Shown: piece after piece, positions 1 to 18,024 of the stretch
Layout of the letters: the number at the start of each line of letters is the position of its first letter
Position numbering within the stretch: the first letter of the stretch is position 1
Virus record (IMG/VR): IMGVR_UViG_3300017917_002762
Location: 61,947-125,946 of that record
DNA length: 64,000 bases
Strand: one strand, 5' to 3'
Origin: a virus
Made by a program: the position numbers and the translations under genes
The notes under the pieces: model-generated
The model's input: the letters and a program-made list of their open reading frames with translations, nothing else
What the model was told of the DNA's origin: nothing
The model's database searches: none

Positions 1-2651
1 TAATTTTTAGGAATTACTAATCCATGTTTGGCTGTAAATTCAGTATTACCATTTCTAATACTTACACCATTTTTACCAATGGTTAAATCTACCCCACCTT
101 CTTTATGTGTGGGATAACCTTTTAAATCTTTTACAAGTTTCCATTTACCACCTTTAGTAAAGTTAGTTTGTAAACCTTTTTCAGCTTTTAATTTACCTCC
201 ACCACAATCTTTTTCTATTTTATTTTCTTGTTCAAGTTGATTTAAAACACTAATATACAAATTATTATCCATTTCTCCAACTTTACTATCAGGAAATATA
301 GTATCAAGATAAGAGCTATAAAGTTGTTGAGCTTGTTGTTTATTTTTTAACTGTATTTCAAAATAAGTACCTTTATCAACAGCATAACTTTTATCTAATA
401 AAGATTTCCAAACTCTATTTGCAGCCTCATTAATATCTGCTTTACCAAAAGCTTCTGATTTTAGTGTCTTACCTTCTTTAGCTAATTGTTCTGCTAAAGC
501 TATATAAACTTTTGTACCAAATCCTTTACCTTGAAATTCTTTTTCTAATTCTACTCCAGCCATCCCTATAGAAGATGATATATAGCCTTCGTTATCTACA
601 GAAATAATTCCTGCATATTTACCATCTATTTTAATAGGATAAGATATTGCTTCTGGATTATCTGGATTAAATCTTGGTTTATCTAGTTGTATTTCAGAAG
701 TATTAATTAACCCTAAAGCTTCATATACAGAATTAGCAAGGTCTTGATTAGATTCAAATAACTCTTCTACTCCTGGTTTTATTTCTTCTGTAGCTTTATT
801 TTTTTTAGACTGTTGAATTTGAAAGTAAACAAGCCTGTCATTAAAATCAGGAGGAAGAATAGATTTATCATCGTAATAGTCCCACATTTGATAATCAAAT
901 GCATCTTTTGCCCTACCCATCATGTTAAGCTTTTCGTAAAAAGCATAATTAAAATGAGCTAAAGAAAGACCAAATTCAGAATCTTCTATTCTTTTATATT
1001 GTTCTGAAGACTCTGGACGTAAAAAGAAATCAAACAGATAAATTTGTTTTAGTTCTTCTTTAGTGAAATTCTCTAAACGCTGATTGAAAGAACCTGTATA
1101 TGACTTAAATCTATTTTTTAATTCTTGATTTTCACTCCAAATAGCATTGATTGTAATGTAGAAAGCATTTGCTTTTTCATTATAGAAGGAATATAGAAAG
1201 TCAGTTTGAGGAAACTCTTTTTTAAACTCTTGTAAAACTTCTACATTATCAATTATTTCATCAATGTTTAATCTAATATTTCCTTTTAATTTATATTTTT
1301 TAGCCTCTTGATAATTTCCTTCTGAAACGTACTTGTAATATAATCTACTACTCTCTAGTTCTTCAGGAGATAAATAATTTGCTTTATTAAGATTAATTTT
1401 GTGCACATCAGATGGTACAATATTATCAATATCATGAAGAGCATCTATCTCTGGTCTATAAGTTGTTCCTTGAAGTCTATAAGCTAATGATCCAGTAATG
1501 AGCATTCCTTTTTTAGAGAACCATTGCATAAACTTTAGTGCTTTTCCACCATCTATTTTGTTTTGATTTTTTATAGTTTCAGAATAAGATAGTAAGTTGT
1601 AATTGGATGTATCTTTCTTTATCCTATCTAACTTATCATAATTCTTATTTAATATATCTTTTGCAATAGAATCAACTGTAGTGTTCAAAGAAACATTATC
1701 AATTCCTTTAATAAGATTTAGAATATAGTCTATTACTTTTTGAACCTTTGCCCAAAATTCTGTATCACCTTTTTGAACTTTATAATTTCTAACAAGAGCA
1801 ATACCAATAGCTTGTCCAATAGCTTCTTTTTTAATTTTATAAATGTCCATATTACCTTCTTTGGTAACATATACATTTTTGTAATCTCTTAGCACACGCT
1901 GATATCCATCCCATTTATCAATGTTATCAAACATGTATTTGAATAATGGGTTGTCTGCTTTTTTATTGCTTATACTTCCCAAGAGCTCTACAAACACATG
2001 TCCATATTCTTCAGGAAGAGTTAGAAGACTTCTATTTTTAGAATAGTAGATTGTTTTAGCAAGAACATCAAACACCCCAACAGAATCTACACCAAACTTT
2101 TCTTTTAAGTTATCAAGTTCTTCTCTTCTTATTTTAAATCTATCAAAATAATTTATAAGAATATTTTCTAGTTCGTTGGATAGAGGTTCATCAATAGCTT
2201 TGTAGTATTGTCTGTCTGAATCTTTTACAAACTCTTTTAAATAAGAAGATAGCACTTCAGAAACTTTTAACTGTCTTAATGAAGGGTTTTCTTTTACTAA
2301 CTGAATAAATTGTTTTCTAATATCTGGATCAAGGCCTGCTTTCTTTAGAACATCATCTATGTTTTTTTCAGAGCCCATAGAATTGATTGTTTTATTAACA
2401 GGTTTTAGCTTTGCCTCAATCTCATTAGCTGAATTGAATATGTTTTTAATTTGAAACAAATAGTTGTTTGTAAAATCTATTTGAGCTTTTTTAGCATCTT
2501 TTTCTTGAACACCTGGTTTAATTTGTGGAGTATATTCACTTTCAGGAACATTACCTTTATACTTATCCCATAAGTAATAAGACATATCTTCTCCTCTAGA
2601 AGCTACTAATGATTTCCAAGAATCTAAATTTATATTAGGACATGTTGCCAT
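1..2651 (-). CDS. Multidomain (polyvalent-type) putative virion cargo protein, about 883 aa: zincin-like EExxH segment, pol-beta-type nucleotidyltransferase, GNAT acetyltransferase, C-terminal HxxGG module. The stop falls at or just beyond the window edge.
   Basis: Not in the ORF track; translated by hand. ATG at 2651-2649 lies 2 nt after the stop of the 5123-aa gene (MATCPNINLDSWKSLV...). Motifs in one frame: TLPEEYGHVF (~1992-2021), LITGSLAYRLQG...LHDIDNIV (~1416-1502), GRAKDAFDY (~895-921), EFQGKGFGTKVY (~504-539), YPTHKEGGVDL...KHGLVIPKN (3-116). The next codon begins TA, compatible with a stop. Confidence 0.85.
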   Translation of the reverse strand, partial: MATCPNINLDSWKSLVASRGEDMSYYLWDKYKGNVPESEYTPQIKPGVQEKDAKKAQIDFTNNYLFQIKNIFNSANEIEAKLKPVNKTINSMGSEKNIDDVLKKAGLDPDIRKQFIQLVKENPSLRQLKVSEVLSSYLKEFVKDSDRQYYKAIDEPLSNELENILINYFDRFKIRREELDNLKEKFGVDSVGVFDVLAKTIYYSKNRSLLTLPEEYGHVFVELLGSISNKKADNPLFKYMFDNIDKWDGYQRVLRDYKNVYVTKEGNMDIYKIKKEAIGQAIGIALVRNYKVQKGDTEFWAKVQKVIDYILNLIKGIDNVSLNTTVDSIAKDILNKNYDKLDRIKKDTSNYNLLSYSETIKNQNKIDGGKALKFMQWFSKKGMLITGSLAYRLQGTTYRPEIDALHDIDNIVPSDVHKINLNKANYLSPEELESSRLYYKYVSEGNYQEAKKYKLKGNIRLNIDEIIDNVEVLQEFKKEFPQTDFLYSFYNEKANAFYITINAIWSENQELKNRFKSYTGSFNQRLENFTKEELKQIYLFDFFLRPESSEQYKRIEDSEFGLSLAHFNYAFYEKLNMMGRAKDAFDYQMWDYYDDKSILPPDFNDRLVYFQIQQSKKNKATEEIKPGVEELFESNQDLANSVYEALGLINTSEIQLDKPRFNPDNPEAISYPIKIDGKYAGIISVDNEGYISSSIGMAGVELEKEFQGKGFGTKVYIALAEQLAKEGKTLKSEAFGKADINEAANRVWKSLLDKSYAVDKGTYFEIQLKNKQQAQQLYSSYLDTIFPDSKVGEMDNNLYISVLNQLEQENKIEKDCGGGKLKAEKGLQTNFTKGGKWKLVKDLKGYPTHKEGGVDLTIGKNGVSIRNGNTEFTAKHGLVIPKN

Positions 2652-2652
2652 A

Positions 2653-5600
2653 TTAACATATTGTTTTTAAAATATTACCAATTTGAAGTGGTGTATAACC
2701 CATGCTTTCTAAAAGCTGGGAATTTATTTGTGAAATAGGATAAGAATTACCATCCATTAATTTTATCTTTCTTTCTTGTTGACCTTCAGCTTCAGTTGTT
2801 ACACCTTTAGATATAAGACCTGTTTTAGTTTTATCTAATTCTGTTATTAATCCAAAATTATCATATAATTCTTTTTGTAACCATTCAGCAAATCTTGTTG
2901 GCATTTTAGCAAGACCTGTTCCAAAACCTTCTGGAAATACAACTTTTGATTTTCCAGATTGTTTAATCTTTTGAATTAACTCTGTATTAACAGATTTGAA
3001 TTCTTCAAAATCAGATTCACTATTAGAATAATCTACATTTTCTCTAGTATTATAATCATATTTTTTCTTAGTCACTATAGCATATGCATTTAATTCTGGT
3101 CTAATTACAGCGGTACCACCCCCTTCTTTATCAGGAAATGCTGTTAAACTGTAAGTGTTTTCAGTATAAATATAAGCAATATCTGGATTTTTTCTTACTA
3201 ATTCTCTAGTATATTTTTCTTTACTTATAGATACAGATTCAAATCCATATCCTTTTATAGATTTAGGTTGAAGATTTGTATACGCTTCAGCTAAAGCTTC
3301 TATAAATTTATTTTTTCCACTTTTAGTTTCCCAAAATTTATCAGTTCCTTTTACATCATGTGTTGATGCATTTATATATTTTAAACCACCTCTATCATTA
3401 ATGCCTTTAATCAGTTCAGGATGTTGTTTAAGTTTTTCAGTAAGTATATCAACCATAAGTTTATAATTAATTTTTATATTAACTTTTTTACTACCTTTTG
3501 GTTTAAACTCATTTGATTTAAAAGCTGTTTCATCAAATTCTCCTGATTTCCAAGTTTGATAAGCATGTTCTGCATTTCTAAAAGTAACATTTCTAAATTT
3601 AATAGCTAAATTATTTCCAGGATTAGTTAATTTCTTAGCAAACTCTGAACCAGAATAAGATATATTTTCACCACCTTTTTCTGATAATTGTATCATATTA
3701 GGAGCAACAGCTGCTTGTGATTGATTTTGAAACATTGGTAAATTTAATGCCATTTGTTTAAATTGTTCAATTGATGCAAGTTTCATTTCAGTAGAGCTAA
3801 TTGGTGCTGCTATCATTGGTGTACTTGCTACAGTTTCTGGTGTATAGTTACTTCTACGTTTATATCCTTCTGCTGTAAGAACATTATTTTTTTCTAAAGA
3901 TGATTGAACTAAATTATAAATAGAAGTTTCAGTATAATTTCTACCATCACCTAATGGAATTAATGGATCATATTGAGCATATTCTTGTCCTTTAATTGTT
4001 GTATATCCTGTTCTTTTATAAATCCAATAATCAAATGCTTTATATCCTTTTTTAAATTTAGACAAATTATTAATATCTTCGCTAGTAACTCCCATTTTAG
4101 GTGCAGATTGTATTATAAATTCATAATTAGAATCTGAATAATCTGCATTTAAGAATATACTAGCACTATATTTTTGCTTCTTAACAAATTTAGGTTTTTT
4201 ATTAATATTTCTATCAAACTTATTATTTTGATGAAATTGTTGCCATATTAAATTAGCATCAAAACTTTCATCAGATGCTTGATATACTGTTAACAATTCA
4301 TTAATAAATCTACTATATAAATGTGCTGGAAGTACTTTTGTATAGTTAATTGTACTATTCTGTAATCCTGATTGAAGTATTGTAAATATAGTAAGATTAT
4401 TAACAAAACTTTCTAGTTCTACATTACCACTTGCTTTTGCATAATCTAATAAATTATTTATTGATTCAATAAGTACATCATTTTTATATGTATCCATTTT
4501 ATTTCTAAATAATTTAATGTTATCTTGACCATCTACATTATTAGCAAATATAGGAAGCAATTCTTTAACAATTAAGTTTTGTGATATATTGTAATCAGGA
4601 GATTGTTTAAGAGCTAATAATTGATTAGGTAAAGATTCGCTACCACGCATTAAAATATCAAACATATCTGATATTCTTGTTTCAACTTCACCATATTTAA
4701 ACGGTGTATTTTGAATTACATATGCTATAAAGAAATTTTGATATTTATTTATTAATAATGATTTATCATCATTTGACATAAATATGTCTCTGTTTTCTAA
4801 AAAGTTATAAAGTTTTTCAAATACAGGTAAAGCTTTATCATCAAGTGAAATAAACATATCTTTAAACAATGGGAACAGATCTTCTTTTTGTTTTTTCATT
4901 TCACCAATAAATGTATTATTAAGAATGCTTTCTGGATTTGCAATAAATCCTCCATCTACCATTCTTTCCCATTTAATTTGTTGAAGTTTATTTTCGATAA
5001 GAGTTTTTGTTTTTTGATTATCATATCCTATTGAACTAATAAACTCTGTAAGATTACTAGATTGATCTTGATATTCTAGATAATCTGAAAGCATTGTTAT
5101 TTGTAATTCAGCATCTTTTTTTGTAAATTTATACTTAGGATTATTTAAATTTTTAATAGCATCTTCAAGTTCTTTTATAGAAGGTTTTTTATTTTCTTTT
5201 CTTATCCTAGAAATTTCAGAATACAATTTAATTTTTTCAGATTTAAGTGCAACATTTATATTTATTATTTCTTGTCTATCTAAATCTTCGTTATTATTAA
5301 GTTTGCTTAATAATTCATTAATACTTGAAATTAATTTAGCATTTTCATCACTAAGCATTCCAAAATATTTAGAAATAGATTCAATATACATATGCTCTCT
5401 AAATACGCTATCATTATTAACAGATTTAAATATTGATTTATTAATGTTTTCTAAACTCATATATTTTTCAACAGCAGGTTGATTAAATAAATAAGCTATC
5501 TCTTTCATTGGAACACCTAACTTCTGTAAATAAAACCATGTTCCAGCTGTATTAAAATTAATATTTAAAGAAAATACAAATGGATCTTTAGCAGCATCAA

Positions 5601-8600
5601 CAAATCCAGAAAGGGCTTCTGATATATTTTCTGATATCCATCTTCCTTCAGCATCTGTTTTAGCATTTAAATAAAACTGACCAATTTTTGTTTCATTATG
5701 TGAAAGATTAATACTAATAGTTCTTTTAATTTTACCATTTACTGTTTCTTGTGATTCTCCCTCATATTTAACCATAAATTTAACATTACCAACATCATAT
5801 TTTCCTGATAATATTATATCAGCAATTTGACACATAACATGACTTGTAGATTGTAAAGCAGCAATACCAACAAGACGTTTTCCAGTTAAATACCTTTCAC
5901 GTGTTTCAGCAGATTGTATAAATTTACGCAATGCTAACATAGAATTTTCAGAATCTTTCTTTCCTTTTAATTCATTTATTTTATTAGCAAGTGATTTAAG
6001 AGTAGCAGTACTATTAGGCATTACAAGCTGACGATAGTTTTCTGGCATAGATACAAGATCTTCCATTATTTCCCTAAGTTCATTTTGCAAAGATTCTTTA
6101 GTATCTTGACCTGCTTCAATATAAAGTATATCTTCAACTATAGGTTTAAACTCTTTCTTTTTATTTTTATTTTCTTTAATAATATTTCTACGATAATCAT
6201 TATACTCAACTAATGAATTTTTTAATTGTGTATACATATCATATTCTTCACCCGTTATATTATTTTCTTTTAAATATTCTTCTAAATTACCAAACTTACC
6301 TTTTCCACTAGTAATTGAAAAATTATTTAAATCATCAATAAGATCAGCAAATTGTTCTTCAGATAAACCATTTATTATTTTTCTAATTGATTTTGAAATG
6401 TTATCAAAAAAAGGACTTTTCTTAAAATCAACTATTTCTTCTTTTGTAAATTTAGAATACTTTAATACATAATTAGGAATATAAAGATTCATTTTATCAA
6501 TATCAAAGTCAGAACCAGCCTTACCTACTATTTCTGTTGGTACAACAATCATATCTCCACTTTCTCTAGGTAAGAAACCTTTAACCACTATACTTTCAAT
6601 AGAGTTCATACCTTGTGTAGGAATACGGAAACCAATCATTTGTAGAAGTCTACTATCCATATTTTTTGGTATTTCATATACTCCATTTTTTAATTTAAGT
6701 CCAAAATCTTCTGGATCAATACCTTCAAAAAACCATGGCATATATATTTCCATCTTTGAAATTTTACCATTTTTTAATTCATAAAATTTCAAATCAGATG
6801 ATGTAGGTATAATTGTTTTTTTCTGTTCATCAGTTAATTTTTCAAGATCATCAACTTCAGTATAAACATCATTATCAAGATACATCATTTTTCTATTAGT
6901 AGAATTGTATCCAGATGATGCAACTTGAACAGCTGGTTTACCAAACATTTTAGCAGATATAACTCTTGAGTCAACTATTTTATTTAATATATTGTCAATT
7001 TTTTCTCTGTTGGCAAGAGTATCAAATTTATATAATAAACCTTTAGTCTCTGAATTTATATTTAAAGCATCAACAAGGTTAGATGGTAAATCTCTTTTAA
7101 TCAATTCATCACGTAATAACTTAATCATTTTTGTATAATCAAGTACTTCATAGTTATTATTAGAATCTACTGTAATTCCTAATTCATCAAGTAATTCTTC
7201 TTTACCTTTAGTTACAATTCTTTCTAACACTTTATTATATCTATTAACTAAATTTTCAGCTTTTGAATTAACATATTTACCATTAACTTTAAAGTTAGAC
7301 ATTATAAGTTTTGTAACCTGAGTACCTCTTACAACTTTATCTTTGTATATAGCAGGTTGTTCAGATTGTATACCATAATATTTAGTATATAATTCTTGTA
7401 TACCAAGTCCCTCTGGTAAAGACCATGACTTAGTTTTTTTATTATATTCAACATTTATAGAACCATCTTGTTTATGAAAATCAATAAATTCACCAGTTTT
7501 AGGATTTACCAATGCTCCAACTTTTTCACCTGATTCAAATCCAATAATATCAATTTGTTGACTTTGTGCAGCTATATATAATTTTTCATATTCTGTACCT
7601 TCAACATTTCTATAAAATTTAGGTTGAACAGAGTGTTTTAAAAACACAGGATGCATCATAGAAGTATTGACAGCATATCCAAAATATTGTGGTTTAATAA
7701 CAGGAAGTGGTACATTTGGATTTCCTTTTTCTAATATAGATTGGGCCCACTTTAAAGTGTATTTACCTTTTTTATATTCTTTATATCCAGCATCTGTTTT
7801 AGGTTTATTTGAACGTGCATTAATTTCATATGCTAATTCGTAATCTATTTGCTGAAGTTGTTTGTTTGAAAGTTTACTACTTAATAAGAGCATATCACGA
7901 TACATATCTGCCATAACCCATCCTTGACCATCTGCTTCATTTAATTCTATATAAGCTTTAATTTCTCCAGTAAATTTACCTTTTTCTAAAATAAAATTTT
8001 TAAAAGATCCATCTTCGTTAAATTTAGCACCAATTCTGTTTTCTGCTTCTTCTTTTGATAATTCATCTCTTCTTATTGAATCATATAATCCTTCAGCAAT
8101 TTGTTTATAATAATTAGATACAGCTGTTACATCTTTAAATGCTATATTTTTAAAGGTTTGAATTTTATTAGTACTTCTAATCTTAGAATCAAATCTTGGA
8201 ATTAATCTATCATATTCTTTGATAATCATAGGATTATCAACTATAGCATCTTTAGATGAATTAATACCATTAGCACGTTTTGCAAGATCTTTATAAAATG
8301 CAGGATGACCATACAATAATTTATGTTGTTCTGTTACAGCAAGTTCTTTATTAATTGTAATATATGTAACAAGTTTTTCTACATCATTATGTGTCATGCT
8401 AGTAGCATCTATATTAAAATAATTTTCTAATACAGTGTTATCAATAGCGTTAGTTGAATAAATAAAATTATTAATATTATCACCAGATCTATTTAGTATT
8501 CCAAGTTTAACTAATGATTCAATTGTATAATCAACTGTTTCATTAAGATCATTTTTTATAAATTCTGAAATACTTGGTTCTGCTAAAAATTCATCTTTAG

Positions 8601-11600
8601 TAATTTTACCACTAAGAAGCATTTCATATCTTTTTTGTAAAAATGATTTTTTTAAACCACTTTCTTTTAATTCTTTTTCAGTTTTAAATTGTAATACATC
8701 TTTAAAATGACCAAGATATTTAACAGAAGTAGAATAATTTTTAATATTAGATTTAGAATCAACTTCCATTAATGCAGCATCTATTTCATCAGAAAGATGC
8801 TCTAAATATATATTTAATACATTACTAAACTGACTACTATTAATTCCATATCCAGCAATATTAGGACTGATAAAAGGTTTTTTAAATGACAATGCAAACT
8901 CAGAACTTTTATCAGAATTAATAATTGTAAAATAAATTGGTTTTAATCCTTCTTTATCAGCATTAAGTATATAATTTATTTCTTGCATTATACGGTCAGG
9001 ATATGTTAAATTAGCAGTATCCGTACCATTTGTATCCATAGAACTAACACCAGATATAAGATAATAATTTATACCGTTTTTTTTATCTCCACGTTCATCA
9101 AATATTAAACCTCCTGGTTTTAAAAGTTGTGAATTATTTTGATAAGGATGTAATACTATAACGGGTTGTCCATCTTTATAATCTACCGTTCCAAATTGAG
9201 GATTAGAAAGAACAAATTCTTCTAGATTTTTTGATTCATTTAATGATGAAAGAACATAATTTATACTAGCAGGTAATGTTATAGAATATTGATTTTGACC
9301 AGAAGCAGTAGTAGACATTAAAATACTATTGTCTGTTCTCATCATAGTTTCTACAGCAATTAATTTTTTCATATTATTTGACTCAGGACCAACAGTTGAA
9401 AATAAATCATCTAAATATTTAATGCTATTTTCTTCACTACTAATTATAGAATTTTTAATATTTTTAAAAGACTCTATAATTGTTGCTTTATTAAAATTAA
9501 TAACTGGAGGAAATGATGATTTAAGTTTTCCATTTTCATCTGTTGTTCCACTAAATATAATTCCTAAATCTTTTAAATATTCTAATACAGTTGGAAGAAG
9601 TAAATTTCTATCAGCATCAGCTTTAAGACTTTGGAATTTTTTATATTGTTGACTATTAGGGTCAAATACTATATTACCCTCATTATCAAATCCCAATATT
9701 TGATTATTGTTTTGAGACTTATCCATTAAGAATTTAAGATTCCTAGGAGTGTTATTCATCCATTCTTCTCTGATTCTTTTTTCATTAGATTCATCCAATG
9801 CATCTATAGAATAAATATCTCCATTTTTATTAATGATAGTTCTTAATGGATTATTCTTTTTGTTCATTAAACTTTTTTCAAATCCAATTAAAAGTTTAAT
9901 ATCATCTATATTTAAAGTTTCTTGTGTAAAATATCTTCCTTCTTCTCCAGCATATTTCAATCTATTTTTTAATCTCTTGATCCACACAAAATTATCAATA
10001 TATAAACCTTTACTTTTATCAAAATATTTATTATCAAGTTTATCAAACATTGCAGATAATGCATCATAAAAAGTAATGTCACCATTTTTAACAATCATTC
10101 TTGAATATGTACCATTAAGTTCATTTAATAATAAATTAAAAGTTGTATCAAAATCTACAAGTGATGGTAAATCTAAATTATTTCTTTTTGCTTTTATTAC
10201 TAAATTACCTTCATCATTTTTAAAATATGCATCATTTGTTAAACTTCCAACCAATATATTAAATGATGTAGCTGTTAATCTTTTTGGATCAATGAATATT
10301 GTATCTCTAATGCCGCTATTATCATTAACTTCTAATTCATCTGTAGGTTTATTTCCTTCTTGATCTTCAACACCTTCAACTTCTTTAAACTTTAATCCAT
10401 ATTTTTGAAGAGATTGTTTTAATATATTATAAACTAATAAAGGATTTTGTTGAGCACTATCAAACATTATAGCAAATCTATTTTTAGATTTAAACTCAGC
10501 TATAGCTTGTGACCATAAATCATTTGCTTCATCTTGTGTCAGATCTCTTCCATTATATTTTATTTGTTTTATAGCTAATGGAGCATAATATCTTTGATAA
10601 CAAATGGAATTTTTTCCATAAATATTATCCCATACATTAGCCATACTTTTTTCAAAAAGTTCTTTTAAAAGTTTATTATTATTTGAGTCTTCAGATAATA
10701 AAGTTTCTATATTAGATTTTATAAAGTTTCCTTTAGAATCTTTAAGAAGATTTGGATTATGTAAATTGGTAAAAAAGTGAGCTGTCAAACCTTCAACAAA
10801 TTGATTGGTAAATTCTTGTGTAGTATTAGGTATTGTTTTTGTAATATCTTCTAATACTGCTTCTCTATAAGTAGTACCAATTTCTGAAACATTTCTTGCA
10901 AATCTAACATTAGCGTAAGAACCATTATTTATTTTATTAAATACACTATGAACAAGTGATTCACCTTCTTTCTTTTCTTTAGTAGATAAACCAATATATT
11001 TTTTAATTGTATTCCATAAATCTCTAAAAAATTCTTTAATCTTTCCTGTTAAAGATGTTTCTTTTTCAGGGGTTATATCATATTCTTCATTTAAAATATA
11101 AGTTCTAAATTCTTCCGCAAGCATTTCTCTAACATCATAATAAGAAGCATCTGCATAATTTTTTGTTTCTTTAGTAAATGGATTGGTAAAAGTACCAGTT
11201 CTATTTCTAAATTCATTTATTAAATCTGCTTGTTCAAATTGATTAAGATATGCATTCCAAATTGCTTCAAATGCTTCATGAAATCCTGTACCTATTTCAG
11301 CATTTTCATATATGTATACAATTCCATTTTTAAAAGCACCCCAAGCTTTACCATCTATTAATTCTGCAACTTTAACTATTTTAATATTTGGTAATTTAGA
11401 TTTAAACCAAGCTTCCATTTTTGCAAAATCTTCTGTTTGCATTACTGTATTGCTTAATCTTTCTCTATAAAACTCTTCGTTATTATTTGCAGGATTACCA
11501 CCTAAATTGTTAGGTTGTGTACCATTAATAACAGTATTTAATTCAGTACTAGATATTGGAGCTGGTTCAACAGATGTTGTTGCTGGTTGACTAGATGTTG

Positions 11601-14600
11601 GTATAGAAACACTTATACCTTGACTTTGAATAGCTAATAACTGTTGTTCTGGTGTAGAAGGTTGTGTAGAAGTTATAGGTTGAGTTTGAGCTTGTGTTTG
11701 AAAACCTGTAAAACCACTTTTCCATAAACTTGCACCTGTAGTTGGAGATGCATTTTGTTGATTATTTTGAATATTGTTATTTATATTAGTTTGTAAATTT
11801 TTATTTTCTGAATTTTGTGCAGCATTATCAAATTTAACATTAATAGGTTGACCTGGACTTAAAAGAACTACGTTACCAGTTCCTCCTTTTAATGAAGGTA
11901 TTGAACCTTCTGCTTTTAATTCTTTATTAATAATGATAGGTTCAAAAGGATCTTCAGGATTATTAAAAATAATATTTACACTTTTTAATTGTGGTGTAGT
12001 TACATCTGTTTCACTATATTCTGGAACATTTGTATATATAACAGGTTCTGATGTTTTAAATAAATACTCTGTATAATTTTCATATTCTTTTTTAATTATA
12101 GGATTACCATCTTTATCAATACCCATTTCAAAAAATGGCTTATTTGTTTTATTTAATAAACTACTATTAACCTGATGATATAATCCTTCTGTAAGTTTTT
12201 CTGCATTTTCATCAATATCTGTTGCACTTAATGTGTATCCCACACCTCCTCTATAAAGTTTATTATCAGAACTACTTATATAAAATCTATTTTGAGATTC
12301 ACTTTTATTACCTTCTGTTGTCCAAAAAATTAATCCTTGTAAATAATTAAGTATATCTTCTCTTGATTGTAATTGATTTTTAGTTAATGCTAAAGGATCA
12401 ACAGCTTCTATTGCATTTATTTTAGCAATGTATTTTAATAAATCAATAATGGTATTTTTTTCATCTGTATTAAGTTCTCTATTAAACACTCTAAAAATCT
12501 GACCATCATCTCTTTTCATATATAGACGACCTTCTTTAACACCATCAGATTTATCTGTTGCAACTTCAAGTTTAATACCTTGACCATTTGGGTGCATTAA
12601 GTTAGAATAATCATTAGTTCCTTTCATGATTAATCTATTTTCTAAACTATGTTCTTGAGGTAAATCAGTTTGAGCATCTTTAGGAAGAATTACTTGTGTA
12701 CCTCTAGTTTTACCTGAAATAGGAATAATGATTTGTTTTCCTTGTTTTATATTTTCACGTGTATTTTTAATAAAACTAATATACCCAATTACTATATTAG
12801 ATATTTGTTCTTTAGTTAAACCTTTAGTTGTAAACTTACTTTCTACCCATTTAATTGCATTTTCAAGTGGACCAAATAATTCAGTATTCATCCTAAAACT
12901 TGTATATACAATATTATCAGCATTAGGATTATCTAATATTTGACCTGTTATGTCAACAGGTTTATATTCTCCATCATCATTTTTAACAACTATAACTTTA
13001 ATATCATTTTCATCATAAGTTATTCCGTAATTATCAGTATCTTTTGTAATTGGCATTAAGAAATACTCACCACCACTTAAGTTTAGATTATCTGTAAATT
13101 TAAAAAATCTTGCATTACCATTTTTTAAGTTTATATCTGTATCTTCTAAATCATTATAATGTAAACCTGTAGTAAGATAAAGTCCAGTTAATCTTAATAA
13201 TGGTTTTTTTAATTGATCAGGATTATTAAACAACTCTCCTTCATTAGATATTTCTACAAGATTAGCATCTGGATTTTGTTTTAATAATTCAGCTCTTCTT
13301 GCAGAAGTAATTTCTGTTTGTAATCTTCTACGTTCTTGTATGTATGATACTTCAGAAAATAATTCATCCTGAATATATTTTAAAAATTTAATTCTATCTT
13401 CTAATTCAGAATACTCTTTAAGTTGTTCTGATGCTTTTTGAAGTCTTTGTAGTTTTGGAAACAGCTCAGTATTAATTTTATTAAATGCTTCTTTTGCATT
13501 TTTAAACCCACCAGCTAATTCTTTGGCAATTTGAAAATCAAGATTATTATTAACAATTCCTCTCCTTAAAAATTTTAAAAATTCTATTTTATCATCATCT
13601 TGACTTTTTTCTTCTTCTTCTTTTAAATACTTTGTAAGCCATTTTTTACTATTATCACTATTAAGAATATCAATGATATCAATATACTTACTTAATTTTT
13701 TCCAAATATCTTTAGCTTCTATAGCAAATTTTTCAAACTTTTGAATTATTTCTTTAAGTTCTTCTATTTCAAATTCTGTATCAAAAAGAAATTTATCAAC
13801 CTCTTCTTTAGAATATCTTTTAGTTATAAGATTTTCTCTTAAAGATTCTGCTTTTGTTTCTTCTGTAGTATAAATGTTACCAGATGAATCTTTTTCAAAT
13901 GCTTTATTGGCTTGTTCAATTTCATCAAGTGCCATATAATATGCATCTCTTGATGTATTTAAACTATCATAGAGTTCTGTTAATGATGTAAGTTCTTCTT
14001 TTAAATCATTAATTAAAGTTTCTATACTATTAATTTTTTCAGGAAAAGAATCAATAGTTTCTTTCATTTTAAGATACTCATTACTACGTCTACCAGACTT
14101 TTTTGGTGGATTTTTTTCTATGTATTGTTGAGCAGTTTGAAGATCTTCACGCATTAATTCTACTTCTGCACGTAAATCTTCTAATCTTTTTGTATTATCT
14201 TCTCTTTTCTTTTTTGTGTCTTCAAGATTTAATTCTACTCTATTAATTAAATTAACTAAAGCTTGTTTTTGATCTTCAATATTTTGTATTTGTTTATACT
14301 TTTCTTCTTCTAAAAGTTGATCTTTATAAAATTCATTAATAGTAAGTCCATTACCTTTGCTTTGTCTTTTAGAAGCATATTTTTCATAATATTTTAAATT
14401 AAATAAAGGTGTAAGAAATTTATTCTTAAACTTATATTTCATTCTAATAACAAAATTTCCATCTTCATCATATTCGCCAACTAAAGTTGCGGTGACCATT
14501 TTACTTGTATCACTATAATCTTTATCATCTAATTTATGAGGAGTTCCATATTTTTCATTTACTTTAATATCAAATTGTTTATCACGATTAATATAATAGA

Positions 14601-17600
14601 ATCTTTCTAATATAGTTAATTCTTTAAAGTTTTTAAGTAAACCAAATTCATTTGCAAAGTCTTCTGCTTTTTTTGTAAATGTTTCTGGTTCATAATTAAG
14701 TTGATATGTTATATTTCCATCTTCAATTGAAATAATTTTAATTACATCATTTGAAAATTTAGATTTTCTTTTTTGATCTACTTTATCTACAGTTGATTTT
14801 TCTTTTAATTTTTCATATAATTTACCATCATCAGTTAATTCACCTTTTTCATTTTTAAAAATTTCTTTATATGCTTGTATTTCAGCATCTTCTTTAGGCA
14901 TTCCATTCTTAACTAAACCTTCTATTCTTTCATCTAATTGATTTTGTAATTGATCTAAATTATATTTTTCATCTTCAGTTAATTTTTCTTTTTTAATTTT
15001 TTTCTCTTTCTGTTTTTCTTTTTCTATTTCTTCTGTTAAATAAAAATTATTCTCTACAATTTCAATAGTGTGATCATTGCCTTCATTATCCTTTACATCT
15101 ATTTTAATTCTATTTGCATTTTCATCATATGTTTCATCTAATAATTCTAATAAACTTTCAGCTTGTTCTTTAGTTTCATGTTTACTAACTACAATACCTT
15201 TAGGAGAATATATAACATATTTACTATTTACTTTTAATATAAAGTGTTTATTATTTTTTGGATTTTTTTCAATATAATCAGCACCTGCTTTTTTAACTGC
15301 TTCTTCATCACCAAGCATGTCCATTAATTGTCTTAAATGTGCTTTATGTAAATTTTCAAAATTACTAGGATTAGCAATTAAATTAAAATAAGAAAGAATA
15401 TTTTCATAATCAGTTTGTAAATGCAAATAGTCAAACATATTACCAACTGTTTTATTTAAAATATCAGTTGTTAAATTTGTAATACTTTTATCTTTATTAT
15501 CTAAAGAAATAATATTAGAAATATCTTGTGCATTTTCATTAATAAAATTTGCTTTTATTTCTGATATTTTATCAGTGTTATTACCTGCTTCTTCTAGTTC
15601 ATTTATAAATTTTTCTACACTTTTTTTATATTTATTTAAAAGATCTAGTTTAGATTTTTTTTCTTCTTTAAGTGTAGGATCAGATATAGCTTCAAATTCT
15701 TTTTCTAAAATTTCAATTTCTTTTTTAAGAGTAAGAGAAGGAGATGTTAATGAATATAAAGAATTAAAATTAATACCAGGAAGATTTTCTTTAATTGCAC
15801 TTAATATTTCAACTTGTCTTTTTGCAATATCTTTATATGTTCCTCCACTAAATGCAATATGATCTATTGCTTGTTCAGCAGCCATATAATTTGCAACTTC
15901 ATCTTTATATTCTTCAGTTCCAATTTTATATTTTTTAGGATTATATGGATTACCATAATTATTTCTTATATTTTCATATGTATTTTTAACTTCTTTAACT
16001 TTAGATTCAAATGTATTTACAAGATTAGTCATTGTTTCTTTAGCTTGTTCTTCAGACATACCTTCATATAAAGAACCAGCATAAGCTTGTTTAAATTCAT
16101 CTAATGTAAGATCATTTATTGATTCTTTCATTCTATCAATAACGACATCATCAACACCAGACTTAATTATACTTAATACATATTTATTAATAAAATCATT
16201 TCTACTATCCCAATAATCTTTTTTTCTACCATCTTTTGCCGATTCATCCATAGATGCATTAAGTTCAACCAATGATCTATAAAAATCAGTTTTGTTATTA
16301 GTTGCTTGATTTAATGTTGAAACTAATTTAGTTCTTTCTTCATTTGCTCTTTGAACACTTGATTTATAACCATCAATGTTCATTTTTCTTTCATAAAGAT
16401 TTTTACCAGTTCTTATTGTACCACCAAGAACGTTCATTATACCACCAGTTAAAAAACCACTCATGAATGTTTTTAAACCATCCATTGTAAGTTGTTCTTT
16501 TGCACCAGCATATAAAAAATCATTAATACCTTTTTGATTTAATCTTTGTTTTTCTGTACCATAATTGTATAAATACCATTGTTTTGTAGCACTGTCTATA
16601 ATATCTTGTCCAGTTTCTTGGACACCTTCCATTAAATTTGTTTTAGTGTAAGTTATAGGTGCTTTTAATAATGTTTTAAAAGGAGAAGTTTTAAGTTGAT
16701 GAGTAAAAGCTGAAATTCCTGTTTTTGCAACAAAAACATCTTCTCCAGCTTTAATTGCTTTTTTACTATTAATAAAAATACCTTTTGCAACTAATCCATC
16801 ATCTAAAAATCTAGTTCCTTTAAATGTTTTAAATACACCATCAAAAGCAATTTTATCTGTAAGTGCAATCCAAGCAGCTTGAACAGCACCTTCTGTTTGT
16901 ATAGTTTCAAATGCTTTTTGTTTTAATTTTTGTTTTATTGCTTCATTTGGTTCAACACTATTTACATTTTTATATTCATTAAGAGCCATTTCATATGCTT
17001 CATCCATAACAGGAGCAATTGTTGCTTTTGCTTCTGTTATACCAGCATTAATCATTCTCATATCGCGATAAAATGCTCCAAATCCCCTAGCTGTAGTTCT
17101 TAATGTGGCTACTGTTGGATTAAATACCATTTTATCAACTCTTGCTAATTTTTTTGCATCTCCTATAAATTCTGTTACATTATTAAAAGGATTAATAAAT
17201 TTAGTAAAAGAATTATTAAATATTTTTCTTAAAGTACTAGCACTTTGTAATGATTTTTCTACTTCTCTTGTCTTATTAATTACATTTCCTAGTTTAGATG
17301 CAAGTTGTAAACTTCTTGCAGCTTGAAGTTCACTTGCACCACCAAACGTTGCAGTAGTTAAAGCAGAAAGAGCAAATTCTTCAGCAGCCATTTCAAGTAC
17401 AGCACCTATAGCATATCCACTTTGCTGAATCATATTAGCAAAATTAGATACATTAAAAAAAGTGTTTCTATCTTCTTGTGTTTGAAAAATATGATATTTA
17501 TTATTAAAATCATTTTGCCAAGCATTAATAGCTTCTAATTCTGATTGTTTAAATGGTGATTCACCTTTAAACATATTTATTGTATCACCCCAAGATAAAA

Positions 17601-18024
17601 ATTGATCTTTAATTTGATTAGCTGCTAATACACTACTTCCTACTATTGCATTAGATATTTTATCCCAATTTGTTTGTGCTTTACCATATGTTTCTTCAAC
17701 ATCTATTCCAGGAAATACACCAATGTCTTGAAAATATGGTGAAGATTTAGCAAGATCATATCCAGGAATTTCTGGAGTTTCATATCGTTGAGCTTGAAAA
17801 AAAGGACTTTGAGAATATTTATTAATATTATTTTTAATATTATTTTCAATATTTTGATCATTAGCTCCTACTAATGTTAATTCAGGATTACTTGTTGAAG
17901 ATAAACTTGCAAATGGATTTTCTAAAGGATCTGATTGTGTAAATGGTACGGGTATATTTTCTTCTGGTCCATTAACAAATGAATTTTCATTTTGAGAAAT
18001 ACTTGATGTATTAAGATCAATCAT
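2653..18024 (-). CDS. Giant (5123 aa) virion-associated RNA polymerase polyprotein of crAss/phi14:2 type, with an N-terminal ejection-protein-like region, a central zincin-like domain and C-terminal NADAR-like plus macro-like domains
   Basis: GKAGSDFDIDKMNLY with DFDID at 6496-6510, the catalytic DxDxD form known from the phi14:2 gp66 RNAP. Also GFRIPTQG and EADGQGW motifs, zincin-like GFHEAFEAIW (~11260-11290), hydrophobic Gly/Ala-rich N-terminal segments, and a position directly after the tail/cargo genes as in crAss-like phages. Confidence 0.9.
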   Translation of the reverse strand: MIDLNTSSISQNENSFVNGPEENIPVPFTQSDPLENPFASLSSTSNPELTLVGANDQNIENNIKNNINKYSQSPFFQAQRYETPEIPGYDLAKSSPYFQDIGVFPGIDVEETYGKAQTNWDKISNAIVGSSVLAANQIKDQFLSWGDTINMFKGESPFKQSELEAINAWQNDFNNKYHIFQTQEDRNTFFNVSNFANMIQQSGYAIGAVLEMAAEEFALSALTTATFGGASELQAARSLQLASKLGNVINKTREVEKSLQSASTLRKIFNNSFTKFINPFNNVTEFIGDAKKLARVDKMVFNPTVATLRTTARGFGAFYRDMRMINAGITEAKATIAPVMDEAYEMALNEYKNVNSVEPNEAIKQKLKQKAFETIQTEGAVQAAWIALTDKIAFDGVFKTFKGTRFLDDGLVAKGIFINSKKAIKAGEDVFVAKTGISAFTHQLKTSPFKTLLKAPITYTKTNLMEGVQETGQDIIDSATKQWYLYNYGTEKQRLNQKGINDFLYAGAKEQLTMDGLKTFMSGFLTGGIMNVLGGTIRTGKNLYERKMNIDGYKSSVQRANEERTKLVSTLNQATNNKTDFYRSLVELNASMDESAKDGRKKDYWDSRNDFINKYVLSIIKSGVDDVVIDRMKESINDLTLDEFKQAYAGSLYEGMSEEQAKETMTNLVNTFESKVKEVKNTYENIRNNYGNPYNPKKYKIGTEEYKDEVANYMAAEQAIDHIAFSGGTYKDIAKRQVEILSAIKENLPGINFNSLYSLTSPSLTLKKEIEILEKEFEAISDPTLKEEKKSKLDLLNKYKKSVEKFINELEEAGNNTDKISEIKANFINENAQDISNIISLDNKDKSITNLTTDILNKTVGNMFDYLHLQTDYENILSYFNLIANPSNFENLHKAHLRQLMDMLGDEEAVKKAGADYIEKNPKNNKHFILKVNSKYVIYSPKGIVVSKHETKEQAESLLELLDETYDENANRIKIDVKDNEGNDHTIEIVENNFYLTEEIEKEKQKEKKIKKEKLTEDEKYNLDQLQNQLDERIEGLVKNGMPKEDAEIQAYKEIFKNEKGELTDDGKLYEKLKEKSTVDKVDQKRKSKFSNDVIKIISIEDGNITYQLNYEPETFTKKAEDFANEFGLLKNFKELTILERFYYINRDKQFDIKVNEKYGTPHKLDDKDYSDTSKMVTATLVGEYDEDGNFVIRMKYKFKNKFLTPLFNLKYYEKYASKRQSKGNGLTINEFYKDQLLEEEKYKQIQNIEDQKQALVNLINRVELNLEDTKKKREDNTKRLEDLRAEVELMREDLQTAQQYIEKNPPKKSGRRSNEYLKMKETIDSFPEKINSIETLINDLKEELTSLTELYDSLNTSRDAYYMALDEIEQANKAFEKDSSGNIYTTEETKAESLRENLITKRYSKEEVDKFLFDTEFEIEELKEIIQKFEKFAIEAKDIWKKLSKYIDIIDILNSDNSKKWLTKYLKEEEEKSQDDDKIEFLKFLRRGIVNNNLDFQIAKELAGGFKNAKEAFNKINTELFPKLQRLQKASEQLKEYSELEDRIKFLKYIQDELFSEVSYIQERRRLQTEITSARRAELLKQNPDANLVEISNEGELFNNPDQLKKPLLRLTGLYLTTGLHYNDLEDTDINLKNGNARFFKFTDNLNLSGGEYFLMPITKDTDNYGITYDENDIKVIVVKNDDGEYKPVDITGQILDNPNADNIVYTSFRMNTELFGPLENAIKWVESKFTTKGLTKEQISNIVIGYISFIKNTRENIKQGKQIIIPISGKTRGTQVILPKDAQTDLPQEHSLENRLIMKGTNDYSNLMHPNGQGIKLEVATDKSDGVKEGRLYMKRDDGQIFRVFNRELNTDEKNTIIDLLKYIAKINAIEAVDPLALTKNQLQSREDILNYLQGLIFWTTEGNKSESQNRFYISSSDNKLYRGGVGYTLSATDIDENAEKLTEGLYHQVNSSLLNKTNKPFFEMGIDKDGNPIIKKEYENYTEYLFKTSEPVIYTNVPEYSETDVTTPQLKSVNIIFNNPEDPFEPIIINKELKAEGSIPSLKGGTGNVVLLSPGQPINVKFDNAAQNSENKNLQTNINNNIQNNQQNASPTTGASLWKSGFTGFQTQAQTQPITSTQPSTPEQQLLAIQSQGISVSIPTSSQPATTSVEPAPISSTELNTVINGTQPNNLGGNPANNNEEFYRERLSNTVMQTEDFAKMEAWFKSKLPNIKIVKVAELIDGKAWGAFKNGIVYIYENAEIGTGFHEAFEAIWNAYLNQFEQADLINEFRNRTGTFTNPFTKETKNYADASYYDVREMLAEEFRTYILNEEYDITPEKETSLTGKIKEFFRDLWNTIKKYIGLSTKEKKEGESLVHSVFNKINNGSYANVRFARNVSEIGTTYREAVLEDITKTIPNTTQEFTNQFVEGLTAHFFTNLHNPNLLKDSKGNFIKSNIETLLSEDSNNNKLLKELFEKSMANVWDNIYGKNSICYQRYYAPLAIKQIKYNGRDLTQDEANDLWSQAIAEFKSKNRFAIMFDSAQQNPLLVYNILKQSLQKYGLKFKEVEGVEDQEGNKPTDELEVNDNSGIRDTIFIDPKRLTATSFNILVGSLTNDAYFKNDEGNLVIKAKRNNLDLPSLVDFDTTFNLLLNELNGTYSRMIVKNGDITFYDALSAMFDKLDNKYFDKSKGLYIDNFVWIKRLKNRLKYAGEEGRYFTQETLNIDDIKLLIGFEKSLMNKKNNPLRTIINKNGDIYSIDALDESNEKRIREEWMNNTPRNLKFLMDKSQNNNQILGFDNEGNIVFDPNSQQYKKFQSLKADADRNLLLPTVLEYLKDLGIIFSGTTDENGKLKSSFPPVINFNKATIIESFKNIKNSIISSEENSIKYLDDLFSTVGPESNNMKKLIAVETMMRTDNSILMSTTASGQNQYSITLPASINYVLSSLNESKNLEEFVLSNPQFGTVDYKDGQPVIVLHPYQNNSQLLKPGGLIFDERGDKKNGINYYLISGVSSMDTNGTDTANLTYPDRIMQEINYILNADKEGLKPIYFTIINSDKSSEFALSFKKPFISPNIAGYGINSSQFSNVLNIYLEHLSDEIDAALMEVDSKSNIKNYSTSVKYLGHFKDVLQFKTEKELKESGLKKSFLQKRYEMLLSGKITKDEFLAEPSISEFIKNDLNETVDYTIESLVKLGILNRSGDNINNFIYSTNAIDNTVLENYFNIDATSMTHNDVEKLVTYITINKELAVTEQHKLLYGHPAFYKDLAKRANGINSSKDAIVDNPMIIKEYDRLIPRFDSKIRSTNKIQTFKNIAFKDVTAVSNYYKQIAEGLYDSIRRDELSKEEAENRIGAKFNEDGSFKNFILEKGKFTGEIKAYIELNEADGQGWVMADMYRDMLLLSSKLSNKQLQQIDYELAYEINARSNKPKTDAGYKEYKKGKYTLKWAQSILEKGNPNVPLPVIKPQYFGYAVNTSMMHPVFLKHSVQPKFYRNVEGTEYEKLYIAAQSQQIDIIGFESGEKVGALVNPKTGEFIDFHKQDGSINVEYNKKTKSWSLPEGLGIQELYTKYYGIQSEQPAIYKDKVVRGTQVTKLIMSNFKVNGKYVNSKAENLVNRYNKVLERIVTKGKEELLDELGITVDSNNNYEVLDYTKMIKLLRDELIKRDLPSNLVDALNINSETKGLLYKFDTLANREKIDNILNKIVDSRVISAKMFGKPAVQVASSGYNSTNRKMMYLDNDVYTEVDDLEKLTDEQKKTIIPTSSDLKFYELKNGKISKMEIYMPWFFEGIDPEDFGLKLKNGVYEIPKNMDSRLLQMIGFRIPTQGMNSIESIVVKGFLPRESGDMIVVPTEIVGKAGSDFDIDKMNLYIPNYVLKYSKFTKEEIVDFKKSPFFDNISKSIRKIINGLSEEQFADLIDDLNNFSITSGKGKFGNLEEYLKENNITGEEYDMYTQLKNSLVEYNDYRRNIIKENKNKKKEFKPIVEDILYIEAGQDTKESLQNELREIMEDLVSMPENYRQLVMPNSTATLKSLANKINELKGKKDSENSMLALRKFIQSAETRERYLTGKRLVGIAALQSTSHVMCQIADIILSGKYDVGNVKFMVKYEGESQETVNGKIKRTISINLSHNETKIGQFYLNAKTDAEGRWISENISEALSGFVDAAKDPFVFSLNINFNTAGTWFYLQKLGVPMKEIAYLFNQPAVEKYMSLENINKSIFKSVNNDSVFREHMYIESISKYFGMLSDENAKLISSINELLSKLNNNEDLDRQEIININVALKSEKIKLYSEISRIRKENKKPSIKELEDAIKNLNNPKYKFTKKDAELQITMLSDYLEYQDQSSNLTEFISSIGYDNQKTKTLIENKLQQIKWERMVDGGFIANPESILNNTFIGEMKKQKEDLFPLFKDMFISLDDKALPVFEKLYNFLENRDIFMSNDDKSLLINKYQNFFIAYVIQNTPFKYGEVETRISDMFDILMRGSESLPNQLLALKQSPDYNISQNLIVKELLPIFANNVDGQDNIKLFRNKMDTYKNDVLIESINNLLDYAKASGNVELESFVNNLTIFTILQSGLQNSTINYTKVLPAHLYSRFINELLTVYQASDESFDANLIWQQFHQNNKFDRNINKKPKFVKKQKYSASIFLNADYSDSNYEFIIQSAPKMGVTSEDINNLSKFKKGYKAFDYWIYKRTGYTTIKGQEYAQYDPLIPLGDGRNYTETSIYNLVQSSLEKNNVLTAEGYKRRSNYTPETVASTPMIAAPISSTEMKLASIEQFKQMALNLPMFQNQSQAAVAPNMIQLSEKGGENISYSGSEFAKKLTNPGNNLAIKFRNVTFRNAEHAYQTWKSGEFDETAFKSNEFKPKGSKKVNIKINYKLMVDILTEKLKQHPELIKGINDRGGLKYINASTHDVKGTDKFWETKSGKNKFIEALAEAYTNLQPKSIKGYGFESVSISKEKYTRELVRKNPDIAYIYTENTYSLTAFPDKEGGGTAVIRPELNAYAIVTKKKYDYNTRENVDYSNSESDFEEFKSVNTELIQKIKQSGKSKVVFPEGFGTGLAKMPTRFAEWLQKELYDNFGLITELDKTKTGLISKGVTTEAEGQQERKIKLMDGNSYPISQINSQLLESMGYTPLQIGNILKTIC
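2845..3230 (-). other. Macro-like (DUF7831-type) domain within the RNAP polyprotein
   Basis: ELVRKNPDIAYIYTEN...GGGTAVIRPELNAYAIVTKK...VVFPEGFGTGLAKMP. This resembles the small phage family with yiFgdN / GgQA.iR...NA.gi.TK / fP..GiGTGlA motifs; the GxGTGxA loop is macrodomain-like. Confidence 0.55.
3270..3660 (-). other. NADAR (YbiA/DarG1-like)-type domain within the RNAP polyprotein
   Basis: FRNVTFRNAEHAYQTWKSG...LMVDILTEKLKQHPEL...DKFWETKSGKNKFIEAL matches the NADAR pattern F..aEH.YQa.K / lM..il.aK..Q.p.l / D.fW...G.N. Confidence 0.7.

Follow-up and report, generated by a model that had tools for sequence, protein, structure and literature searches.

A predicted nucleotidyltransferase and GNAT protein of polyvalent type encoded beside the virion RNA polymerase of an uncultured crAss-like phage

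Organization of the P0001 locus

The crAss-like phages rank with the most abundant of all known phages, and little is established about what they inject beyond DNA and RNA polymerase. This report concerns P0001, a gene in the IMG/VR virus record IMGVR_UViG_3300017917_002762, whose source is an uncultured aquatic crAss-like phage. The window, meaning the whole 64,000-nucleotide stretch analysed, covers bases 61947-125946 of this 125,946-bp record, which carries direct terminal repeats and has a GC content of about 26%. P0001 occupies the first bases of the window and adjoins the gene for a virion RNA polymerase (vRNAP) polyprotein. Its product combines a tentative zincin-like domain, a predicted nucleotidyltransferase (NTase) and a short GNAT acetyltransferase, joined by conserved linkers and closed by a C-terminal junction module (Table 1).

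The reading frame of 883 codons runs from its ATG without an in-frame stop through window positions 3..2651 on the minus strand. On sequence fetched beyond the window start, the protein again measures exactly 883 aa (genome 61946-64597); hence, the stop codon lies across the window's first base and no part of the gene is lost. The first-pass annotation had proposed this frame as an overlooked gene, which proves to be real, and had called for an extended window to find its stop, although the frame was already complete. Every motif it had quoted is present at the expected position. These are EEYGH (residues 214-218), LITGSLAYRLQG (384-395), HDIDNI (406-411), LFDFF (539-543) and, in the C-terminal part, RAKDAFD (580-586), FQGKGFG (706-712) and HKEGG (849-853).

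Adjacency to an RNA polymerase gene was likewise borne out. The stop codon of the 5123-aa open reading frame (ORF) upstream and the P0001 start codon form the sequence TAA-T-ATG, a gap of 1 nt. Residues 3500-4300 of the upstream protein match the 'putative RNA polymerase' of crAss001 (8e-23) as well as proteins of many Bacteroides, Flavobacterium and Cellulophaga crAss-like phages, and gp66 of phi14:2 aligns to residues 3000-4185 at 5e-30. Together with the DFDID motif, these matches identify the element as a crAss-like phage and the upstream gene as its vRNAP polyprotein. The DxDGD motif is absent from the whole genome, DFDID being the motif of this vRNAP.

Table 1. Features of the P0001 locus. 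Positions refer to the window unless marked as genome coordinates; residues are those of the encoded protein.
Feature	Position	Strand	Details
P0001 coding sequence, complete, 883 aa	1..2651	minus	ATG at 2651-2649; stop codon across the window's first base
N-terminal leader module, residues 1-45	2517..2651	minus	begins M-A-T-C-P-N; N-terminal in 14/14 relatives
Zincin-like helical domain (tentative), residues ~150-358	1578..2204	minus	conserved EExxH at 214-218 (window 1998-2012) and E276
Predicted pol-beta-fold NTase domain, residues 359-612	816..1577	minus	G387-S388, D407-x-D409, D541, K574, R580-x-K582-D583-x-x-D586
Linker 1, residues 619-648	708..797	minus	KPGVEELF...YEALG; shorter KPGVQE copy at residues 45-50
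Short GNAT acetyltransferase domain, residues 650-770	342..704	minus	motif A Q-G-K-G-F-G at 707-712; variable effector slot of the family
Linker 2, residues 768-812	216..350	minus	...YSSYLDTIFPDSKV...; conserved junction in relatives
C-terminal junction module, residues 813-883	3..215	minus	contains HKEGG; single copy in genome, immediately ahead of the next gene's conserved N-terminus
Junction island, ~410 nt	1-215 + genome 61747-61946		spans the boundary of P0001 and the 382-aa gene
crAss-like vRNAP polyprotein, 5123 aa, upstream neighbour	2653..18024	minus	DFDID at residue 3839
382-aa gene, P0176	genome 60793-61941		first 65 residues conserved, remainder variable
Free-standing GIY-YIG + NUMOD3 homing endonuclease gene	genome 60128-60793 (L003 10129-10794)	minus	between the 382-aa and 1748-aa genes
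1748-aa gene	genome 54885-60131		EExxH zincin-like paralogue at residues 224-462; PD-(D/E)XK nuclease at 510-733

Catalytic domains of P0001

The zincin-like and NTase domains, hereafter the core, were modelled together. An AlphaFold model of residues 140-620 that used 32 homologues reached a pLDDT of 83 and a pTM of 0.81. In a Foldseek search of the PDB with this core model, all hits remained below threshold (E > 0.06), with a list enriched in NTases and anthrax lethal factor.

Residues 359-612 adopt an alpha/beta NTase fold in the model. The nearest solved structures to this domain are MenT1 (161 aa aligned, score 9.0), LnuA (8.2), TglT/MenT3 (7.7) and ANT(2'') (7.3), and the match list also holds TM1012 (8.2), JHP933 (7.5), the Megavirus poly(A) polymerase (6.9) and a fungal NTase-like protein (6.2). 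An independent Atlas structure search listed AbiEii, NTP_transf_5 and Aminoglyc_resit clusters. Residue conservation agrees with the fold: G387, S388, R399, H406, D407, D409, D541, K574, R580, K582, D583 and D586 are 97-100% conserved across 94-111 homologous domains. The signatures hG[GS] and [DE]h[DE]h correspond to G387-S388 and D407-I-D409 (98-100% in 94 domains). Their spacing is 18 residues, compared with the classic 9-13, and a helical insertion of about 70 residues follows the DxD strand. The third catalytic carboxylate, D541 of LFDFF, is 98% conserved and falls on a predicted strand (residues 538-544). The assignments made at first pass to GS...DxD, LFDFF and RAKDAFD hold because of this 97-100% conservation, and the fold model supports them. 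K574 and R580-x-K582-D583-x-x-D586 may be the equivalents of the C-terminal AbiEii/MenT motifs III/IV (Lys, Arg/Lys-Asp...Asp helix), to judge from the fold match. Overall, the model places residues 359-612 as a pol-beta-fold NTase in the structural neighbourhood of MenT, AbiEii and LnuA, with the full set of catalytic residues.

Sequence profiles do not detect this relationship. The AbiEii profile PF08843 gave no match at E<=1, nor did PADLOC or a PDB-sequence profile search, and the core as a whole found no matches in PHROGs, PADLOC, NCBIfam or PDB-sequence profiles. A cognate antitoxin gene was not found beside the NTase, whose neighbours are the vRNAP and 382-aa genes and which itself sits inside a protein of the virion block.

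For the preceding domain, E214, E215, H218 and E276 are 94-96% conserved among homologous domains (n = 111-115). The first position of the motif is Glu in 109 of these 115 domains, giving EExxH in place of the HExxH of canonical zincins, and none of the Pfam LPD or MPTase models matches P0001. EEYGH had been described as zincin-like at first pass. Its conservation speaks for a retained site, and residues 150-358 are weakly zincin-like.

The GNAT is the sole module of P0001 that sequence libraries detect. Acetyltransf_1 (PF00583) matches residues 663-749 with 22.8 bits on the whole protein and 25.1 bits on residues 619-883 (cut-off 20.7), and FR47 scores 23.8 bits on residues 619-883 (cut-off 22.1). 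All top structural matches are GNATs, with alignments of about 105 residues against chains 145-190 residues long. Motif A (Q/R-x-x-G-x-G/A) is present as Q707-G-K-G-F-G712 and is conserved in relatives, in line with the acetyl-CoA loop first read in FQGKGFG. The domain is short, at about 120 residues, and carries Trp at the usual position of the motif-B Tyr. The Pfam profile, 116 positions long, is matched from position 25-26 onwards, and the usual N-terminal beta1-alpha1-alpha2 arm appears to be missing or replaced by linker helices.

Such departures raise the alternative that the enzyme-like domains are largely structural remnants and that P0001 serves mainly as cargo or as an ejectosome scaffold. 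Canonical HExxH is gone from the zincin-like domain, the GNAT is shortened, and the N-terminal domain of anthrax lethal factor, one of the structural neighbours, sets a precedent for an inactive zincin-like module. Degeneration is nonetheless very unlikely, as the catalytic residues of the NTase are kept at 97-100% in more than 100 domains, GNAT motif A is intact and maintained in relatives, and conservation of EExxH and E276 indicates a retained site.

Mosaic relatives and the link to the virion polymerase

A word-index search returned 38 relatives of P0001, and an exhaustive search returned 830 cluster representatives at E<=1e-3, of which the best 150 were inspected. About 30 of the 38 share residues ~65-615 at 55-84% identity and differ in their N- and C-terminal additions. 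Among the 150 best representatives, many proteins of 2000-6000 aa contain the core (33-43% identity), the zincin-like domain also occurs alone, and the GNAT appears as a small stand-alone protein. Pfam domains found at the variable positions of relatives include ART-PolyVal (down to 2e-20), ParB_N, AAA_33/Zeta-toxin kinase and DUF7831. Relatives thus keep the core and exchange the GNAT for ART-PolyVal, ParB or kinase modules. Many small relatives (among others P0072, P0077, P0111, P0121 and P0149) start with M-x-C followed by a pattern of about 40 residues, C-x-N-x-x-H-P...L...W. These starts resemble the leader of P0001, which is always N-terminal.

Physical linkage to the polymerase is direct in part of the family. 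In 21 giant relatives, the core and a region homologous to vRNAP residues ~3300-4200 reside in a single chain, and in three more relatives (P0039, P0040 and P0162) the core is fused to a protein like the 1748-aa product encoded further downstream. The P0001 family has no Pfam or PHROG model. Its metagenomic relatives number in the hundreds, and the family frequently forms part of the vRNAP chain itself. A tblastn search of P0001 against 50,697 GenBank phage records gave no match. Structural matches in BFVD included a cr108_1 protein (1e-5) and the 'Structural protein' of phi17:2 (3.5e-4), with phi14:2 gp65 reaching only E 0.12.

With zincin-like, NTase and GNAT domains in one chain, variable architectures and a vRNAP operon context, P0001 has the hallmarks of a polyvalent protein. 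The module swaps of its relatives and the occurrence of ART-PolyVal within the family uphold the earlier claim of a polyvalent-type multi-effector protein.

The same linkage feeds the main competing explanation. Here, the zincin-like and NTase core would be a virion transcription accessory, engaged in 3' tailing or protection of early transcripts or in activation or processing of the vRNAP polyprotein, and only the downstream slot would be an effector. The core does behave as a fixed pair (35-84% identity) and shares a chain with vRNAP in the 21 giant proteins, its structural neighbours include poly(A) polymerase, TUT1, a CCA-adding enzyme and Trf4, and phi14:2 gp65, in the same genomic position, is annotated 'RNA polymerase associated protein'. 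Distribution points the other way. Of 67 related viral loci with the linkers of P0001, 3 contained the NTase and 10 the zincin-like domain. Both counts are lower bounds, since most of these loci were seen as ±8 kb windows. The NTase is thus rare even though many of the loci have a DFDxD vRNAP in view, and absence of the NTase from GenBank crAss-like phages by tblastn also argues against a universal part of the machinery. Moreover, the top-ranking structural matches of the NTase are enzymes of toxin and resistance type, not polymerases. These frequencies mark the core as accessory and not universal. They speak more for an effector than for an essential part of transcription, and a transcription accessory is an unlikely explanation.

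Linkers and the C-terminal junction

Two KPGV copies, at residues 45-50 and 619-648, bracket the core. In relatives, QQLYSSYLDTIFPDSKV (residues ~775-791) is followed either by KDIVYHGT or by the C-terminal junction module (C-module), and KDIVYHGT looks like the start of an ART-PolyVal-type domain in the relatives that carry it. The sequences KPGVEELF...YEALGF and QQKQQAxQLYSQYLDTIFPDSKV recur in the large majority of the 67 IMG/VR loci (L007-L073, contigs of ~12-140 kb). The linkers lie inside the same ORF as the DFDxD motif in 24-25 of the 67. From this pattern, they look like joints for module exchange, universal in these polyproteins, and they could also be processing sites.

The first-pass annotation had read HKEGG as part of a cargo-type module. 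A tag common to several cargo proteins of the phage is not borne out, as a hidden Markov model of the module matches only P0001 among all six-frame ORFs of the genome. What emerges is a conserved junction placed ahead of the N-terminus of the next gene. A full copy of the C-module ends the protein directly preceding a 382-like gene in 8/8 viral loci. It terminates the DFDxD chain itself in two loci. Fusion of the module to a 382-like N-terminus is seen in two loci and in P0124. Further, among the 150 best representatives, the last ~85-110 residues occur at the C-terminus of many otherwise unrelated proteins of 140-2800 aa, at 60-88% identity. The final ~70 residues are poorly modelled (AlphaFold pLDDT 34-74, with four short strands at 55-74), and an Atlas search with the C-module gave no usable match.

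Conservation at this boundary extends to the nucleotide level. A block of ~410 nt over the stop codon, the 4-nt spacer and the following ATG shows 86-91% nucleotide identity to loci L009, L010 and L011, with unalignable flanks. In L008, this spacer has been entered by a 710-bp GIY-YIG gene, whose insertion point lies precisely between the stop codon of the C-module and the start codon of the 382-like gene. Synonymous codons match at 0.73-0.93 inside the island, compared with 0.62-0.84 in its poorly conserved flanks, and with AT codon bias this strong, the values do not tell recent conversion apart from protein-level constraint. The island may reflect constraint on the protein, a homing site or co-conversion. 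A second island of nucleotide identity lies at the junction of the homing endonuclease gene and the N-terminus of the 1748-aa protein.

A split intein at the boundary of the C-module and the next gene was also considered, in view of a conserved Cys at the start of the C-module and an invariant Asn18-Ser19 in the next protein. We set it aside: 69 + 18 residues fall far below HINT size, no Pfam model matches, and the segment is contiguous in fused relatives. Our reading of the sequence pattern is that this is the conserved junction of a polyprotein whose chain has been split at varying points, rather than a shared cargo tag. The split is possibly aided by homing endonucleases, which target conserved sequence, and the two split termini probably still work together.

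Neighbouring genes

Downstream of P0001 on the same strand follow the 382-aa gene, a 221-aa GIY-YIG/NUMOD3 homing endonuclease gene and the 1748-aa gene, after which the coding strand switches. One related viral contig has the same order of vRNAP, core protein, 382-like gene, homing endonuclease and 1748-like gene.

The 382-aa gene begins 4 nt past the P0001 stop. Its first 65 residues are 83-94% identical to those of the 382-like proteins in L007 and L009-L011 and 71% identical in L008, compared with 25-38% for the rest of the chain. Across eight phages, many positions of this N-terminus are invariant, including N18, S19, G21, D22 and P27. A YkuD L,D-transpeptidase domain is present in 2 of the 8 382-like proteins, and the C-terminus of P0176 gives a sub-threshold PG_binding_1 match. 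Its domain content suggests an ejected protein that acts on the cell wall during entry.

One to three GIY-YIG + NUMOD3 genes are found in related contigs, at varying junctions of the same block. In the 1748-aa protein, the zincin-like paralogue aligns to the P0001 domain with an E value of 4e-15, and an acidic DDDDD run lies close to the C-terminus. The vRNAP polyprotein has additional matches to DUF7831 (residues ~4935-5044) and phrog_1017 (~4808-4914), and BLAST suggests a weak copy of the zincin-like domain at its residues 708-979 (E 7e-5).

Proposed function

On balance, we read P0001 as a modular protein of polyvalent type that is packaged and ejected with vRNAP and whose NTase and GNAT act on the host, with a rough probability of 0.6. 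The protein would be packaged in the capsid together with vRNAP and would enter the host ahead of or with the DNA. Once inside, the NTase would add nucleotides to a macromolecule of the host. By analogy with MenT, the 3' ends of RNA, for example of tRNA, are its most likely target; other substrates are open to it, given structural neighbours that act on small molecules. The GNAT, in turn, would acetylate a host protein, an aminoacyl-tRNA or a small molecule, and host shut-off or a blunted defence could result. The two KPGV linkers on either side of the core may be cleavage sites of the zincin-like domain. Cleavage by MPTase domains has been proposed for polyvalent proteins (Iyer et al. 2017, PMC5512222).

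Packaging and ejection are inferred, with indirect support from the fusion of the core to vRNAP in more than 20 relatives, the position of gp65, the gene order of the related contig, the cell-wall domains in the family of the next gene and the cargo stored in crAss001 virions. A different view is that P0001 is made late and acts inside the infected cell, in anti-defence or nucleic-acid metabolism, and is neither packaged nor ejected. The sequence by itself gives no proof of packaging, and the C-module is single-copy instead of being common to cargo proteins. CrAss-like phages are not known to have a recognisable capsid-targeting signal, which counts for the same view. Against it, the gene belongs to a virion/vRNAP operon, where 1 nt separates it from the vRNAP gene, relatives join the core to a packaged protein, and the positional counterpart gp65 is a virion protein detected by tandem mass spectrometry (MS/MS). 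A purely intracellular late role is therefore distinctly improbable.

The packaged and ejected effector can be drawn out into a more specific scheme, which we offer as speculation and consider doubtful as a whole. The crAss-like phage would deliver a toxin-type NTase and a GNAT with its vRNAP against host tRNA or RNA 3' ends, aminoacyl-tRNA or proteins, so that the chemistry of bacterial abortive-infection toxins would be turned on the host, or tRNA damage inflicted by host defences would be undone. The EExxH domain would cut its own chain at the KPGV linkers, and the ultra-conserved C-module would dock to the N-terminus of the next gene's product, allowing the split polyprotein to reassemble in the capsid.

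The analysis adds to the probable ejected cargo a MenT/AbiEii-like NTase and a range of exchangeable effector modules (GNAT, ART, ParB and kinase). If the activities are confirmed, these modules would form a defined, testable set of early host-takeover or anti-defence enzymes, and the polyvalent-protein concept would extend to virion polymerases of the DFDxD type. Conserved linkers and junction modules additionally offer a handle on the shuffling, splitting and possible processing of such proteins.

Comparison with known systems

P0001 resembles the polyvalent proteins in carrying several effector-type domains in one chain among late or virion genes, with a zincin-like domain beside variable enzymatic modules. 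Both GNATs and pol-beta NTases are among the domains listed for polyvalent proteins by Iyer et al. 2017 (PMC5512222). The NTases of that survey are minimal, related to NTox45 and confined to polyvalent proteins of conjugative elements, primarily from firmicutes (PMC5512222), whereas the NTase of P0001 is larger, MenT/AbiEii/LnuA-like and found in a phage. Further differences are the link to a crAss-type (DFDxD) vRNAP rather than one of N4 type, and the EExxH motif, compared with HExxH or HExxxH in polyvalent proteins.

In Cellulophaga phage phi14:2, the counterpart of P0001 by position is g065, located directly after the RNAP gene g066. MS/MS found its 1421-aa product in virions, and the annotation reads 'RNA polymerase associated protein'. 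According to a preprint on vRNAP structure, gp65, gp66 and gp67 are virion proteins that form one fused polyprotein in some phages, and gp65 has a zincin-like protease domain. Virions of crAss001 contain ~5.5 MDa of cargo proteins, including RNAP-associated proteins (PMC10172136). Like gp65, P0001 is encoded immediately downstream of a DFDxD vRNAP, on the same strand and near the end of the virion block. Unlike P0001, gp65 carries the canonical motif as HEIMH, and neither an NTase nor a GNAT is detectable in it. Sequence homology between the two was considered and set aside (13 bits only, HExxH not opposite EExxH, Foldseek E 0.12), and the analogy is kept as one of position.

With regard to toxins of the MenT/AbiEii (DUF1814) group, represented by MenT1 (8an4) and TglT/MenT3 (6j7n), the NTase of P0001 differs in having no Pfam or PADLOC match and no antitoxin gene, and in being embedded in a multidomain phage protein. 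For MenT1, MenT3 and MenT4, the acceptor end of tRNA is the site of nucleotide addition (PMC10435456). The acetyltransferase shares its fold, its CoA-binding motif A and above-threshold Acetyltransf_1 and FR47 matches with the GNATs AAC(6')-Ib (1v0c), RimL (1s7f) and AtaT (6gtp). It departs from them in its length of ~120 residues, in an N-terminal acceptor arm that is missing or replaced, and in the Trp that takes the place of the motif-B Tyr. Taken together, P0001 is distinguished from known systems by an NTase type unreported in the phage polyvalent proteins of the 2017 survey, by its EExxH module and by its junction module.

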